A model generated the notes under the pieces. That model saw nothing but the letters and a program-made list of their open reading frames with translations. It ran no database searches and was not told where the DNA came from. This document shows, in pieces, positions 12,653-17,287 of a stretch of 39,723 bases of DNA. The position numbers and the translations under genes are program-made. The stretch's first letter is position 1; every line of letters starts with the position of its first letter. Source of the stretch: a virus (Duplodnaviria > Heunggongvirae > Uroviricota > Caudoviricetes); the IMG/VR virus record IMGVR_UViG_2537562231_000011. One strand, 5' to 3'.

Positions 12653-12946
12653 ATGAGCAAAGTACGCGTTATTTTTGAATTTAATCATGTTTCGCATGAC
12701 GAAAAGTTGGCAGGCAATGACTGTGTTGAAGTGCATGAAAAGATTGGAGTGGATGTGAAAACAGAACGTGATACGGATAACAGGCCGACGTCACTCTGTG
12801 ACGTTTATGCAAGTATTCTCCAGTATCACAGTCCTGCAATTATTCAGTTTCTCTCAGCGGAATTTCAGGCATCTGCACAGTCTTTTGGAGCGGATGCCAT
12901 CATTAAACGCCACCGCGTGCATAAAGCATCAGGCACACTGCAATAA
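12653..12946 (+). CDS. Hypothetical small protein, tandem paralogue 2 (MSKVRVIFEFNH...)
   Basis: ATG at 12653 with AGGGG ribosome-binding site; same N-terminal motif as the preceding ORF. Confidence 0.45.
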   Translation: MSKVRVIFEFNHVSHDEKLAGNDCVEVHEKIGVDVKTERDTDNRPTSLCDVYASILQYHSPAIIQFLSAEFQASAQSFGADAIIKRHRVHKASGTLQ

Positions 12947-12957
12947 GGAAAAACAAA

Positions 12958-13488
12958 ATGGCTAAACGCGTTACAAAATTAAAGGCCGCAGCCGAGGCGG
13001 CACCGCAGACCCGGGAAGAAGTCAGCCGTGATATCCGCACCCTGGGAGATATTCAGCGAGAGGCGCTGCGCCTGGAAACGGCGATGAATGACGAAGTGGC
13101 AGAAATCACCGCCCGTTATACGCCGCAGATTGAAAATCTTAAAAAGCAAATCAAAGTGCTTTTTAAAGGGATTCAGGACTGGTGCAAAACCAACCGTGAT
13201 GAGCTGACGAACGGCGGCAAAACCAAAACAGCCAATCTGACCACCGGAACGGTGTCATGGCGGCTGGGAACGCCATCATGCAGCGTCAGCCGTGATGTGG
13301 AAGGTGTGATTGAAATGCTGCGCCGTATGGGGCTTGAGCGTTTCATCCGCACGAAAGAGGAAGTGAACAAGGAAGCCGTCCTGGCGGAGCCGGATGCTGT
13401 GAAAGGCATTGCCGGTATCAAGGTGAATAAAGGCGCTGAAAGTTTTTATGTCGAGCCTTTTGAACAGGACGCCGGACTGAATAAATAA
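12958..13488 (+). CDS. gam: Host-nuclease inhibitor Gam (Mu Gam-like DNA-end-binding protein)
   Basis: 176 aa; motifs shared with Mu Gam as I recall it (NRDELTNGGKTKTANLTTGTVSWR, LERFIRTKEEVNKEA, FEQDAG). Confidence 0.85.
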   Translation: MAKRVTKLKAAAEAAPQTREEVSRDIRTLGDIQREALRLETAMNDEVAEITARYTPQIENLKKQIKVLFKGIQDWCKTNRDELTNGGKTKTANLTTGTVSWRLGTPSCSVSRDVEGVIEMLRRMGLERFIRTKEEVNKEAVLAEPDAVKGIAGIKVNKGAESFYVEPFEQDAGLNK

Positions 13489-13633
13489 CACCACATTAAT
13501 CAATTAAATATCACTTCATTTTAATTATGGCGCTCGCGTCAGGGGACTGCTTGCGCCTGAAAACAGAAAATAAGGGTTAAGAAATATGAAATACGTTTAT
13601 ATCGTCATTAATAATGTGGTGGGGAAATAAATC

Positions 13634-14167
13634 ATGATTGATGCAAAAGTGCTTGAAGGGGTTAAAAACTGGCTGTGTATTTATGGCCGCCTGACCTGCG
13701 GTGTACTGGCTGAAAAAATGAATATGCCGCCATCCTCCATGGTTTATTTTTTGCGTGATGCGGTTGATGCAGGCGTGCTGACGGAATGTAACGGTTTTTA
13801 TGATATTCCGCGCCCCCGCCCGGTGCAGCCGGTTCGTCGCAAATGCAGCCAGGAATCTGCGGCTGATGATGTTCAGTGGTGCGGCTTCAGAAAATCCCTG
13901 CCATGGATTGAGGGGCATGATATTCCGTCGATGGCGTGGGAATTTGCTCAGGGCGTTCTGACCTGTGAAACCGTTTATGTGGTGGCTGAAGTTGATGAGC
14001 AGGCCATGAAAGAAGGCGTGCCCCAGTTTGTGATGGCGTATATCGACATACGCCTGGGCGTCATTATCTGCGGTTTAAGCGGCTGGAATATCACTGAACA
14101 TGTTCTGCGCTACCTGATTGTTGACCGGACAGCAGCGCCTGCCGGGATATCTGCGGAGGTGGCGTAA
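13634..14167 (+). CDS. Hypothetical protein (177 aa)
   Basis: Co-directional ORF after an AT-rich 145-bp gap; no recognisable domain. Confidence 0.4.
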   Translation: MIDAKVLEGVKNWLCIYGRLTCGVLAEKMNMPPSSMVYFLRDAVDAGVLTECNGFYDIPRPRPVQPVRRKCSQESAADDVQWCGFRKSLPWIEGHDIPSMAWEFAQGVLTCETVYVVAEVDEQAMKEGVPQFVMAYIDIRLGVIICGLSGWNITEHVLRYLIVDRTAAPAGISAEVA

Positions 14168-14682
14168 TGTTCTTTAAAACATCAAACCCTTCCGCGCTGG
14201 CTGCGTGGCAAAAATACCAGCAGGACTGCCAGAAAGTTAAGGATGAGGCAAAACGCCTTGAGGCCGTGCTGAATGTTGCGTGCCGGTCGGTATTTGTATC
14301 CGGTATCAGTGGATTTTACTTTAAGGGACTGCGTTTTACGGAGGACAAATATCCTTTTCATCGCGACTTATGGCGAAAACCGACTGCGTCGAATGGCTGG
14401 AGCTGCACACCGCGCACATCACGTATCCCTAAAACCCTGCGTGTTGCCTCTGATGAACTGAACAGTCTGTGGCGTGAATATTCGCCCGTCACGTATGCCA
14501 GAACCGATGCGCTGTTGTTCTGGTTGGGTATTGATTTCTCGGCAATCCTGTTTGGCCCTGTGAAGTGGTTCTGCGTTGACGATGTGATTTACCTTCAGTG
14601 CGGCGTAAAACCCGCAAAACAGAAAATGACCGAAATACTGTCTGATGAGTTTTATGCTGCTGAAAAGCGAGTCAGGGGGTGA
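14167..14682 (+). CDS. Hypothetical protein (171 aa)
   Basis: Start overlaps upstream stop (TAATG); no recognisable domain. Confidence 0.4.
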   Translation: MFFKTSNPSALAAWQKYQQDCQKVKDEAKRLEAVLNVACRSVFVSGISGFYFKGLRFTEDKYPFHRDLWRKPTASNGWSCTPRTSRIPKTLRVASDELNSLWREYSPVTYARTDALLFWLGIDFSAILFGPVKWFCVDDVIYLQCGVKPAKQKMTEILSDEFYAAEKRVRG

Positions 14683-14685
14683 TGC

Positions 14686-15237
14686 ATGATGAAATTACAA
14701 CCCATGGGACTAAAAGGTCGCGCCCCCGCTCATGTCCGTCCGTGGACACCTGAAGAAGATGCGCTGCTGATTGCGCTTTATTCATCCACCCCGGTTAAGG
14801 ATATTGCTGCCAGAATAAAAAGAACTGTCTGGGCTGTATATAACCGGACTGGTGTATTGCGCAGTTCATACCCGGAGTTACTGAAATATAAACACCCAAG
14901 ATTTACACCTGATGAAGATAAGTTTATTCGAAAAAATGCCAGAACAATGACCTGCCAGCAAATGGGAGAATATCTCGGACGTAATAAAGATTCTGTCAGA
15001 TGTCGGGCAGGAATGATTGGTGCTGGATTAACAAAGTGCGGAGAGTTACGCCCCGGCACGCGCATATCTGATGATGATGTACGTCTTATACGTGAGCTGC
15101 GTGATTCCGATTACCCACGCCGTCTGTCATTCCGGGAAATTGGCGAAAAGTTTGGAATATCTGAACATTCTGCTCACGCAGTTTATTACCGTCGCCGGAC
15201 TGCCGAGGACGCTGTATTACGGGAGTTAACGCCATGA
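14686..15237 (+). CDS. Hypothetical protein with three HTH / Myb-like repeats; putative DNA-binding
   Basis: Three ~45-aa repeats beginning WTPEEDALL, FTPDEDKFI and ISDDDVRLI, each followed by a helix-turn-helix-like stretch. Confidence 0.4.
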   Translation: MMKLQPMGLKGRAPAHVRPWTPEEDALLIALYSSTPVKDIAARIKRTVWAVYNRTGVLRSSYPELLKYKHPRFTPDEDKFIRKNARTMTCQQMGEYLGRNKDSVRCRAGMIGAGLTKCGELRPGTRISDDDVRLIRELRDSDYPRRLSFREIGEKFGISEHSAHAVYYRRRTAEDAVLRELTP

Positions 15238-15566
15238 TAACGACCTTATTTGTTGAATCAGATGAACCTCTTGTGTGTGCCGCCGGAATGCCGCTCTGTG
15301 GCGGAACGCTGACCGGCGTTTATTTCGGGGATTTGCGCGGTTATCCCTGGCATTCACTGGATGACGCATTTCCGCCTGATATGGAGGCTGTCGTGCTGAT
15401 TGTTCAGTATGGTGACCAACAGGAACTGCGCATCGGCCATATGGGGTATGAAGGCTTTTTTATTGATGAAGAAACCGGAGCCTGCCTTGAAGATGAGGAC
15501 GGACAGGTGACGCACTGGTGCCATCTTTCGGCCTTGCCGGAATTACAGGGGATACATAATGGATGA
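15234..15566 (+). CDS. DUF551-like phage protein
   Basis: 110 aa with W..L.D..PP...V...Q.....VTHW..L..LPE pattern as in the enterobacterial prophage DUF551 family. Confidence 0.45.
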   Translation: MITTLFVESDEPLVCAAGMPLCGGTLTGVYFGDLRGYPWHSLDDAFPPDMEAVVLIVQYGDQQELRIGHMGYEGFFIDEETGACLEDEDGQVTHWCHLSALPELQGIHNG

Positions 15567-15702
15567 GCAAATTGTTGAATGTCCCACCTGTGGAAATGAG
15601 GACCCGGAGTATCTGAAAGAGTGCCCACATTGTGGTGAGATAAAATGTAACCACTGCGATATGGGCGACGACACTGCATGTATAAATTGTGAGGATGAAT
15701 AA
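15559..15702 (+). CDS. Small zinc-ribbon protein (47 aa, four CxxC pairs)
   Basis: Own translation: MDEQIVECPTCGNEDPEYLKECPHCGEIKCNHCDMGDDTACINCEDE. Below the ORF-track length cut-off; start overlaps upstream gene. Confidence 0.4.
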   Translation: MDEQIVECPTCGNEDPEYLKECPHCGEIKCNHCDMGDDTACINCEDE

Positions 15703-15703
15703 T

Positions 15704-15991
15704 ATGGAAAAAGAAATCAAATTTGCGCCTAAATCTATCGACGAAGAACTGGCTAAAATCGGCATGCTTGAACGTATGCGGGACATTATCGAATATGCGA
15801 TAAAAGAAAATCTTGCAGCCAGAGAAGCCCTTTTGATAATGGAGCGGGAGATTAACCTGATTAAGGATGCTGTATCTCTGGATAATAAAATAGCCCGCGA
15901 GGAATACGTTCGCCGTAGGCTCGGTGTTGATGGTTCAGCAATTCTTACATCTGAACATTATGCAAAAATTTTTAATCTTTTTCAGCGGTAA
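15704..15991 (+). CDS. Hypothetical small protein (95 aa, predicted helical)
   Basis: ATG at 15704 two bases after the previous stop; AT-rich; 3' end overlaps the convergent minus-strand gene. Confidence 0.4.
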   Translation: MEKEIKFAPKSIDEELAKIGMLERMRDIIEYAIKENLAAREALLIMEREINLIKDAVSLDNKIAREEYVRRRLGVDGSAILTSEHYAKIFNLFQR

Positions 15992-16211
15992 TCCCCATAC
16001 AGGCCCGGAGATTGTCGAAATGCCAGTCGGTATTAATATATGAGCCATCCTGGATATCTTCTGCATTTTCCGGGGTAGAGTTTTTTTGAGCGAGATTGAT
16101 AATATGTATTGCCTCCTCACGGGAAATCAGCCCCTTATCGAACAGGGTTACCATAAGATTTCCAGCCATTGTGAATGCGGCAACATCAAGTGCATTTTTT
16201 ATATCTGACAT
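15972..16211 (-). CDS. Hypothetical small protein (79 aa), antisense to the early operon
   Basis: Minus-strand ORF with AAGGA-type ribosome-binding site ahead of its ATG; the only credible minus-strand gene inside the unidirectional block; AT-rich. Confidence 0.4.
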   Translation of the reverse strand: MSDIKNALDVAAFTMAGNLMVTLFDKGLISREEAIHIINLAQKNSTPENAEDIQDGSYINTDWHFDNLRACMGITAEKD

Positions 16212-16239
16212 AGATTTTTCCTTTTATGTTAATTGACAT

Positions 16240-16268
16240 GGCGGTGCGGTAACACCGCCCATTTTTTA
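16240..16268 (+). terminator. Rho-independent terminator (GGCGGTG-CGGTAA-CACCGCC then ATTTTTTAT)
   Basis: Perfect 7-bp GC-rich stem followed by T-run, 14 bp upstream of the GemA-like gene. Confidence 0.55.
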
Positions 16269-16281
16269 TGGAGCCACGATA

Positions 16282-16794
16282 ATGAATCGCGCTTCCCTGA
16301 TTACCTTAATACATGTCGCAAAACGCGATCTACAGCTTGACCATGATACCTATACATCCGCGCTGCTGGCAGCCACCGGCAAATCCAGTTGCCGTGATAT
16401 GTCACCCGGTGAGTTATCCCGCGTGCTGGATGTTTTCAAAAAACGCGGTTTTAAAGTGCGTCAGAAGCCGGTTAACCGGGCCTTAAAACCGGGTACGGTG
16501 ACCGCCAAAATTCGCGCCATCTGGAAAGTGATGCACCGGCAGGGATTTATCTCTGATGGCGGGGAAACGGCCCTTAACCGCTGGGTGAAATCGCAGACGG
16601 CCGCGCAGAACGACGGCGAAGGTGTGGCTAACTGGCAGTGGCTGGAGCAACAACCCGCGCTGGCCTCTGATGTGCTGGAGCGTCTCAAACGCTGGCACCG
16701 CCGCAAAATGCTGGCAGCCCTGGATATGTCGGAACGTGCAGTGATGAGTTATGAGCGTGTTTGCAGGCTGTATGAAAAATCATTCCCCCGTTAA
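16282..16794 (+). CDS. GemA-like regulatory protein (Mu gp16 / DUF1018)
   Basis: 170 aa; N-terminal LITLIHVAKRDLQLDHDTY...TGKSS motif typical of the family; position before the Mor/C activator. Confidence 0.65.
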   Translation: MNRASLITLIHVAKRDLQLDHDTYTSALLAATGKSSCRDMSPGELSRVLDVFKKRGFKVRQKPVNRALKPGTVTAKIRAIWKVMHRQGFISDGGETALNRWVKSQTAAQNDGEGVANWQWLEQQPALASDVLERLKRWHRRKMLAALDMSERAVMSYERVCRLYEKSFPR

Positions 16795-16797
16795 CCC

Positions 16798-16830
16798 CAA
16801 ATCCCGCCACAGCGCGGGATTTTTATTTTA
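16798..16830 (+). terminator. Rho-independent terminator (AAATCCCGC-CACAGC-GCGGGATTT then TTATTTTA)
   Basis: 9-bp perfect stem followed by T-run, directly after the GemA-like stop. Confidence 0.6.
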
Positions 16831-16864
16831 AACTTGCCCTGTGTAATGATGACCGGAGGCGGGT

Positions 16865-17287
16865 ATGGCTGAAACACAGATGAGCATGTTTGGTGACAGC
16901 GAACAGCTGCACGCGCTGATTGACCGTCTGGATGATATTCCTGATGATGAGCTGAAAAAGAACTGGCCCGGCACGCTGCGGGACCTGGTTGATGTGATCA
17001 GTGCTGAACTGCACCGTCAGGGGATTGAACCTGCTCAGGCGGGAATGCTTGCCCGTAAGGTTGCAGCCGCACAGGCCGGGTACATGGGCGGGCGTGGTTA
17101 TTATCTCCCGGTCGGTGAATCCCTTTTCACCGAACTGCGCAATAATGAAATTTTTTCCCGCTGGAGCCAGGGCGAAAAAATTGAAACCCTGCGCCGCCAC
17201 TACCAGATGTCAGAGACGCAGATTTACTCCGTTATCCGCAACCAGCGTCGCCTGCATCAGGAACGCACGCAGCCACGGCTTTTCTGA
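16865..17287 (+). CDS. Mor/C-family transcriptional activator
   Basis: 140 aa; C-terminal HTH and overall pattern consistent with the Mu Mor/C family; lies immediately upstream of the lysis cassette. Confidence 0.7.
   Translation: MAETQMSMFGDSEQLHALIDRLDDIPDDELKKNWPGTLRDLVDVISAELHRQGIEPAQAGMLARKVAAAQAGYMGGRGYYLPVGESLFTELRNNEIFSRWSQGEKIETLRRHYQMSETQIYSVIRNQRRLHQERTQPRLF

Follow-up and report, generated by a model that had tools for sequence, protein, structure and literature searches.

Positions 13634-15702 of the viral record IMGVR_UViG_2537562231_000011 (39,723 nucleotides; "the window" refers to this whole stretch) hold a block of five genes, g1 to g5, which gene order and sequence similarity identify as the distal half of the semi-essential early (SEE) region of an Escherichia coli Mu-like prophage. 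Set against phage Mu, the block reads as a mosaic in which conserved Mu early genes (orthologs of gp11, gp12, and gp13) are combined with exchangeable cassettes (g3 and g4). As an overall explanation we favor, as the probable though far from certain one, a set of accessory SEE genes in which g3 would encode a host-directed DNA binder and the acidic products of g4 and gp13 would act as blockers.

The open reading frame (ORF) list places the five co-directional genes on the + strand, at the coordinates given in a preliminary description of this DNA. The first gene, g1 (13634-14167), encodes an acidic protein of 177 residues (charge -6) orthologous to Mu gp11, and g2 (14167-14682) a basic protein of 171 residues (charge +8) orthologous to Mu gp12. 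These are followed by g3 (14686-15237), a cassette without Mu counterpart at this position that encodes a basic, Myb/SANT-like protein of 183 residues with three predicted helix-turn-helix (HTH) modules; g4 (15234-15566), a cassette for a very acidic protein of 110 residues whose C-terminal half is weakly DUF551-like; and g5 (15559-15702), which encodes an acidic, 47-residue ortholog of Mu gp13 with four CxxC pairs. Adjacent genes share 1, 4, or 8 nt or lie 3 nt apart, and gp14 starts 1 nt past the g5 stop. Pfam identifies Gam (12958-13488), GemA (16282-16794), and Mor (16865-17287) in the flanks, and a Mu-type transposase and MuB are located further upstream of gam; the setting is therefore that of a Mu-like prophage. 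The gene order, namely gam, gp11, gp12, g3 and g4 (the inserted pair), gp13, gp14, an antisense gene, gemA, and mor, recurs in RefSeq relatives and across about 95 IMG/VR loci, and the earlier placement of the block between gam and gemA of a transposable phage is upheld by both the Pfam matches and the RefSeq order.

The 2.3-kb block is 99.9% identical across five E. coli chromosomes, part of it is found in 232 of 5426 complete E. coli genomes, and it is about 90% identical to regions described as "inserted Mu-like phage" within two Stx phages. Each block protein matches a PHROG family (E between 1e-26 and 1e-105). The block genes returned no match to a characterized function, a defense model, or an anti-defense protein: the NCBIfam scan of all block proteins gave nothing usable, and the PADLOC-DB defense models matched none of the seven proteins tested at E values up to 0.1. 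An Rfam scan of 12900-16900 gave only a sub-threshold match to a Trp leader.

The closest known system is the SEE region of Mu itself (NC_000929, Mup11-Mup14), which has the same order and orientation between gam and gemA and in which, as in the block, an antisense gene precedes gemA. Identities to Mu are 68% for gp11, 55% for gp12, 88% over a 41-residue core for gp13, and 49% for gp14. Unlike Mu, the block carries two extra genes, g3 and g4 (885 bp), between gp12 and gp13; its gp13 is shorter and has a different N-terminus, with 6 residues before the core compared with 19 in Mu; and its antisense gene is unrelated to Mu gp15. The preliminary description held that none of the five genes had an assignable function, which is correct as regards function but overlooked that three of them are orthologs of named Mu genes. 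Mu gp11-gp14 are equally uncharacterized, and none of the homologies leads to a characterized core replication or transposition protein, which that description had named as the finding that would speak against it. Literature searches likewise turned up no characterization of gp11, gp12, gp13, or the g3 family.

The g1 protein aligns with Mu gp11 over its full length of 177 residues (E 9e-83), matches the Pfam family Gp11_C (PF25754) at 139.2 bits against a cut-off of 27 over profile positions 1-78 of 78, and matches phrog_1949 with an E value of 4e-105; its gene is the first after gam both here and in Mu. The g2 protein aligns with Mu gp12 over 169 of 171 residues (E 4e-70), and its gene lies right after gp11, as expected of the Mu gene. 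PF26885 is carried by all 46 database relatives of g2 (the query itself was not scored against this family), which PGAP names "Mu-Gp12 family protein". PDB sequence searches found no relative of gp11 or gp12, and gp12 had no fold match in the PDB. Both genes follow gam in nearly all full-length Mu-type loci fetched; in four of these (L065-L068; L numbers are our handles for loci) no gp12 match was obtained at the threshold used. The gp12 family is narrow, comprising E. coli, Salmonella, and one Citrobacter locus, the single locus returned when genome contigs were scanned with gp12. We take gp11 and gp12, on synteny and similarity, to be lineage-conserved Mu early proteins and not variable cargo.

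Beyond gp12, the picture changes. Among 48 distinct gp12-to-gemA intervals, a sample that is biased because it was fetched with g3 or gp13 as bait, there are at least nine patterns of gene content, spanning 299-2861 bp. Examples include g3-g4; g3-g4-gp13-gp14-antisense; gp13-gp14; g3 alone; and g4-gp13, and g3, g4, and other cassettes come and go independently of one another. Among the alternative cassettes are those for small membrane proteins, for a further Cys-rich protein (65 residues), and for DUF2513; for the ten that were scanned against Pfam and PHROG, all assignments read "unknown function". The variable slot proposed earlier between gam and gemA can accordingly be narrowed: the stretch from gp12 to gemA is hypervariable, whereas gp11 and gp12 are syntenic and conserved.

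The last gene of the block, g5, had been singled out as a zinc-ribbon micro-protein distinctive of this element. Its four CxxC pairs are present as described (C8/C11, C22/C25, C30/C33, and C41/C44), but the protein is Mu gp13 and so is not peculiar to the element. It has a charge of -12 in 47 residues. All eight cysteines are kept in 10 of 11 relatives, the motif KCNHCDMGDDTAC is conserved in nearly all of them with CDMGDDTAC invariant, and the N-terminus varies with the upstream gene. Homologs of gp13 occur in non-Mu phage contigs near genes for DnaQ-like exonucleases and other early genes; the gene is thus portable between phage types. The CxxC spacing resembles that of the Pfam zinc-ribbon families DZR and Zn_ribbon_LapB, from which gp13 differs in being free-standing and in its very acidic 41-residue core; the matches to these families, at 13-17 bits against cut-offs of 25-27, all fall below threshold, and a PDB sequence search returned only zinc-ribbon matches at chance level. 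Eight cysteines would be enough for two putative Zn sites.

Three close genomes (NZ_AP022815, NZ_CP027586, and NZ_AP042574) show a gap of about 137 nt at this position, where PGAP leaves gp13 unannotated (6067-6205 in L001, 4088-4226 in L004, and 4489-4627 in L005); Mu's own record annotates it as Mup13. This treatment, and the very short length of the ORF, would suit a chance reading frame in the spacer between g4 and gp14. We attach practically no weight to that possibility, which is contradicted by the pattern of conservation: besides the 88% identity to the annotated Mu gene, the 41 core codons differ from those of Mu by 15 synonymous-only and 5 non-synonymous changes, the cysteines are retained, phrog_5584 is matched with an E value of 3e-26, homologs occur in unrelated phage contexts, and the ORF is equipped with a Shine-Dalgarno-like AGGGGA 6 nt upstream and a start that overlaps the g4 stop. 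By these comparisons gp13 is under purifying selection. We also considered that g4 and g5 might form one protein through a frameshift and rejected this, as relatives of gp13 keep the core behind different upstream genes and N-termini.

The g3 protein is strongly basic (charge +12, pI 9.9). An AlphaFold (AF2) model built from a 22-sequence alignment has a mean pLDDT of 84.6 and contains three three-helix bundles (residues 22-59, 75-110, and 129-169) and a C-terminal helix; its N-terminal peptide of 17 residues is disordered and yet conserved, with G11 and H16 invariant. Repeat 1 (14737-14865, + strand; residues 18-60) and repeat 2 (14899-15021, + strand; residues 72-112) are of Myb type, with predicted helices at 22-32, 37-43, and 48-59 and at 75-84, 90-97, and 101-110, respectively, and are clearly homologous to each other (hhalign probability 98%, E 1.7e-13). 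Module 3 (15061-15195, + strand; residues 126-170; helices 129-140, 149-156, and 160-169) is a divergent HTH whose sequence similarity to repeats 1 and 2 is marginal (hhalign E 1e-3 to 3e-3) and whose weak Pfam matches to an AsnC-type HTH and to HTH_10 both lie under the curated cut-offs; it is the most conserved part of the family, with many invariant columns. The three WTPEEDALL-type HTH repeats reported earlier are therefore recovered as three modeled bundles, of which the first two are homologous repeats and the third is a module of another kind. The charge, homology, and predicted fold together support a multi-module DNA binder, in agreement with the multi-site binding that had been suggested.

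We regard "Myb-like" as the right description of the predicted protein. The g3 family profile matches the c-Myb R2R3 DNA-binding domain (PDB 1h88, 1mse) with an E value of 1.2e-6. Taken as a single sequence, g3 scores 19.7 bits against Pfam Myb (PF00249) and does not reach the cut-off of 24.4, and precomputed tables list PF00249/PF13921 in several relatives at 45-50% identity. The model displays the tandem repeats of about 50 residues, each a three-helix bundle with an HTH, that define Myb/SANT proteins. Like c-Myb R2R3 and SANT domains, g3 has this repeat length and spacing, an acidic WT-x-EED motif that opens each repeat, and one three-helix bundle per repeat; it differs from c-Myb in its third module, which is of a different HTH flavor, and in its context, a phage early operon. 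Of the three regularly spaced tryptophans of a Myb repeat, only the first (W20) is kept in g3; the other two positions hold aliphatic or polar residues, and in repeat 2 F or W is confined to the first position. We rejected an AsnC/Lrp identity, the name that PGAP gives to close relatives: the AsnC-type HTH scores 18.8 bits against a cut-off of 27, the AsnC C-terminal (RAM) domain is not matched, and g3 ends 13 residues past the third HTH. Because the C-terminal domain is lacking, the AsnC name on the relatives is a mis-transfer.

Other proteins share parts of this architecture. Family phrog_323, labeled "transcriptional regulator, D5-like", matches g3 with an E value of 5e-53. Mu gp9, whose gene lies upstream of gam and not downstream as g3 does, aligns with modules 2 and 3 of g3 at 27% identity and is a distant paralog with two modules; relative to gp9 and PHROG 323, g3 has an additional N-terminal Myb repeat and the conserved disordered 17-residue N-terminal peptide. 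The DNA-binding domain of GcrA (PDB 5yiu) shares only 15% sequence identity with g3. GcrA combines one such domain with a sigma-70-interacting domain, and no partner domain of that type is recognizable in g3. The g3 profile also matches chain A of the archaeal multi-HTH protein PDB 2lvs (2lvs_A, E 5e-4), which we take to be Cbp2, a CRISPR-repeat-binding protein (the table entry reads only "putative uncharacterized protein"). Like g3, it is small and basic and has tandem homeodomain-like HTH modules; unlike g3, it is a distant archaeal host protein, and nothing known here corresponds to its DNA target. In BFVD, many phage proteins are built as strings of HTH modules (examples come from Goslar and BcepSauron, and another is a Vibrio phage "D5 protein"), all of them uncharacterized. 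A profile search of 1.84 billion representatives found about 25 full-length relatives of g3 of about 180 residues, the few of which that were looked up came from Salmonella and Hafniaceae, along with thousands of long multi-Myb proteins that match repeats 1 and 2. These long proteins have 300-1500 residues with 3-9 tandem Myb-type stretches, and one is labeled as coming from a Propionibacteriaceae metagenome-assembled genome.

Among 51 IMG/VR loci, g3 always lies directly after gp12 where the context is Mu-like. Homologs with 38-46% identity are found in contigs of P2-like phages, in which the order is a D12 Dam methylase, with or without DUF4406, followed by the g3 homolog, one or more variable genes, and the Phage_GPA replication protein. 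Of the P2-like loci (L048-L053, about 4700-7600), five were examined, and three of these include DUF4406. After the g3 homolog comes a C5 cytosine methylase (L051), a PAPS reductase (L052), or, in the remaining loci, small ORFs. In these phages the region immediately preceding replication gene A seems to be a separate accessory hot spot. In both phage types g3 sits at the upstream edge of a variable stretch, and its distribution shows it to be a portable early-operon gene common to Mu-like and P2-like phages. It is absent from Mu, from all Mu-type loci L065-L087, from the close relatives L089-L091, and from the Citrobacter locus L103.

This distribution bears on whether g3 acts on the phage or on the host. 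If it acted on the phage, g3 would control early-to-middle transcription or transposition through repeated sites in the Mu-like genome, and its early-operon location shortly before the regulatory genes gemA and mor, the presence in the same operon of Mu of the two-module paralog gp9, the PHROG label "transcriptional regulator", and the constant position after gp12 are all compatible with such a role. We nevertheless consider a phage-directed regulator unlikely: Mu and the Mu-type loci develop without g3, some close relatives and the Citrobacter locus lack it too, its homologs in P2-like phages operate among unrelated control circuits, and no repeated candidate site turned up, although no systematic motif search was made. 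Because g3 is also found in P2-like early operons with different replication and regulation, its target would more likely be host DNA, or DNA common to the cell, than a Mu-specific site. On the favored explanation, a host-directed g3 would bind double-stranded DNA as a string of three HTH modules and read an extended asymmetric site, as do c-Myb R2R3 or the bipartite Tc3 domain, and would most likely serve as a transcription or nucleoid modulator.

The second cassette protein, g4, is very acidic (charge -17, pI 4.05) and matches phrog_6925 with an E value of 2e-51. The whole DUF551 profile (PF04448) aligns with g4 residues 39-102, including the VTHW…LP motif, at 14.6 bits, which is below the cut-off of 22 and amounts to a resemblance only; DUF551 is itself without known function. 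A PDB sequence search with g4 found nothing, and neither g3 nor g4 has a counterpart at this position in Mu, against which tblastn of g4 gave no match. The g4 gene occurs in loci that have g3 and in loci that lack it. In the Salmonella and Citrobacter relatives (L046, L047, L088-L092, and L103) g4 is 78-80% identical, whereas gp11 and gp12 are 50-68% identical, which suggests either recent exchange of g4 or stronger constraint on it.

Many anti-defense proteins are small and very acidic, as are g4 and gp13, and one could accordingly read the stretch as an anti-defense islet in which g3 is an Aca-like anchor, and possibly a regulator, while g4, gp13, and the alternative cassettes downstream inhibit host defense. 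In Mu-like and P2-like phages alike, g3 borders the variable stretch on its 5' side, and what comes after it is varied (g4, small membrane proteins, a C5 methylase, a PAPS reductase, or nothing), which fits such an arrangement. To our knowledge, Aca proteins are single-HTH dimers encoded downstream of their acr genes; the gp12-g3 junction is a 3-nt gap with no promoter-like site or inverted repeat; the islet proteins have no sequence or fold similarity to known anti-defense proteins; the alternative cassettes all belong to PHROGs of unknown function; and gp13 also occurs without g3, as in Mu. A further point in favor is that the Mu early gene Mup07 (gnarl2), upstream of gam, is reported to be an accessory gene that modifies the host surface (bioRxiv 10.1101/2023.04.06.535777); gnarl2 is the only precedent we found in the early region of Mu for the host-interaction functions that the preliminary description placed in the slot. 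On balance we think the islet quite improbable. In a broader form, which we put forward tentatively and as rather unlikely, g3 would mark an accessory hot spot shared by the early operons of two unrelated groups of temperate phages, Mu-like and P2-like, the acidic proteins that travel there, including a two-zinc gp13, would inhibit host defense or DNA-repair proteins at the start of lytic growth, and g3 would reprogram host or competitor transcription.

Returning to the favored explanation of accessory SEE genes, the expression of the block can be pictured by analogy with Mu, whose SEE region is transcribed from Pe, at a low level also in the lysogen, and encodes functions described as "largely unknown" (PMC3820752). 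The five genes would be co-transcribed from the early promoter, as the packing and the lack of an internal terminator-like site (the scan found none on the plus strand before 16240) would suggest, and would be expressed when lytic growth begins and, at a low level, in the lysogen as well. The genes would be accessory and not part of the transposition machinery, because g3 and g4 are absent from Mu, the cassettes vary independently, and the SEE region is poorly conserved, encoding small uncharacterized proteins (PMC8705779). The small acidic g4 and gp13 proteins would most likely bind and block host proteins, plausibly nucleic-acid-binding ones. Several observations weigh against this explanation. 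None of the five proteins has a characterized relative, and the argument for a host-directed g3 draws only on the finding of the gene in two types of phage. Domains of the SANT type can have proteins as ligands in place of DNA, and the predicted recognition helices of g3 differ among relatives. Acidity is weak evidence of an inhibitory role for g4 and gp13, neither of which has a PADLOC match or similarity to a known anti-defense protein. Co-transcription is argued from packing and from Mu, and a weak promoter-like site lies just upstream of gp11.

Several elements flank the block. The spacer between gam and gp11 contains a GC-rich hairpin (13529-13557, + strand; -15.6 kcal/mol, z -2.3) that Mu (L003, about 6368-6397) and L004 share apart from changes to its internal loop; across Mu, L004, and the window its energy is -15 to -17 kcal/mol with z about -2.3. 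As no T run follows, it is not a classical terminator, and it might be an element of RNA processing or stability. Relatives can carry an optional insert between gam and gp11, either a DUF5420 gene or another gene of about 180 residues; the DUF5420 gene of L004 and L005 lies at the point of the hairpin. A perfect 10-nt inverted repeat, CACCACATTA and TAATGTGGTG, at 13489-13498 and 13612-13621 brackets the spacer; we considered it as a cassette boundary mark and rejected it, as it is not conserved in relatives and is probably due to chance.

Downstream of the block, the gp14 ortholog (15704-15991, + strand) aligns with Mu gp14 with an E value of 2e-30, and gp14 accompanies gp13 in most loci. An antisense gene for an acidic protein of 79 residues (15972-16211, - strand; annotated in RefSeq; phrog_32893, E 1e-45) has 20 nt in common with the 3' end of gp14. 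It has no similarity to Mu gp15 (E 0.38) despite occupying the same position, at which relatives carry a DUF2513 gene. Between the antisense gene and gemA is a terminator-like hairpin followed by a T run (16240-16268, + strand; 7 pairs, 6 of them G-C, then CATTTTTTAT), identified by consensus match only. It is a possible 3' end of the gam-to-gp14 unit, in which case it would split that unit from gemA and mor transcriptionally.

The rest of the window indicates where the Mu-like element resides. The first 7.3 kb (window 1-7400) consists of structural genes of a different, siphovirus-type prophage, among them a portal (327-1529), an Ig-bearing tail tube (4122-4838), and a tape measure (5580-7307) that matches only positions 1-177 of the 295 of PF06120. 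The tape-measure ORF stops at the start of the Mu-like left end, TGAATCATTTGATACCG at about 7306, and the motif CATTTGATAC[CT]G occurs in three copies within 160 bp at this end. It seems that the Mu-like element inserted by transposition into the tape-measure gene of a prophage already present, a situation like that in the two Stx phages.

The block belongs to a known, functionally unexplored kind of region and is not a new kind of system. What the comparison adds is an ordering of one widespread E. coli version of the SEE region, in which conserved gp11-gp14 can be told apart from exchangeable g3, g4, and their alternatives. Two of its genes, g3 and gp13, cross phage-family boundaries, and one of these, the conserved micro-gene gp13, has been skipped by annotation in three close RefSeq relatives. 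The outcome is a short list of candidates for host-takeover or anti-defense screens.

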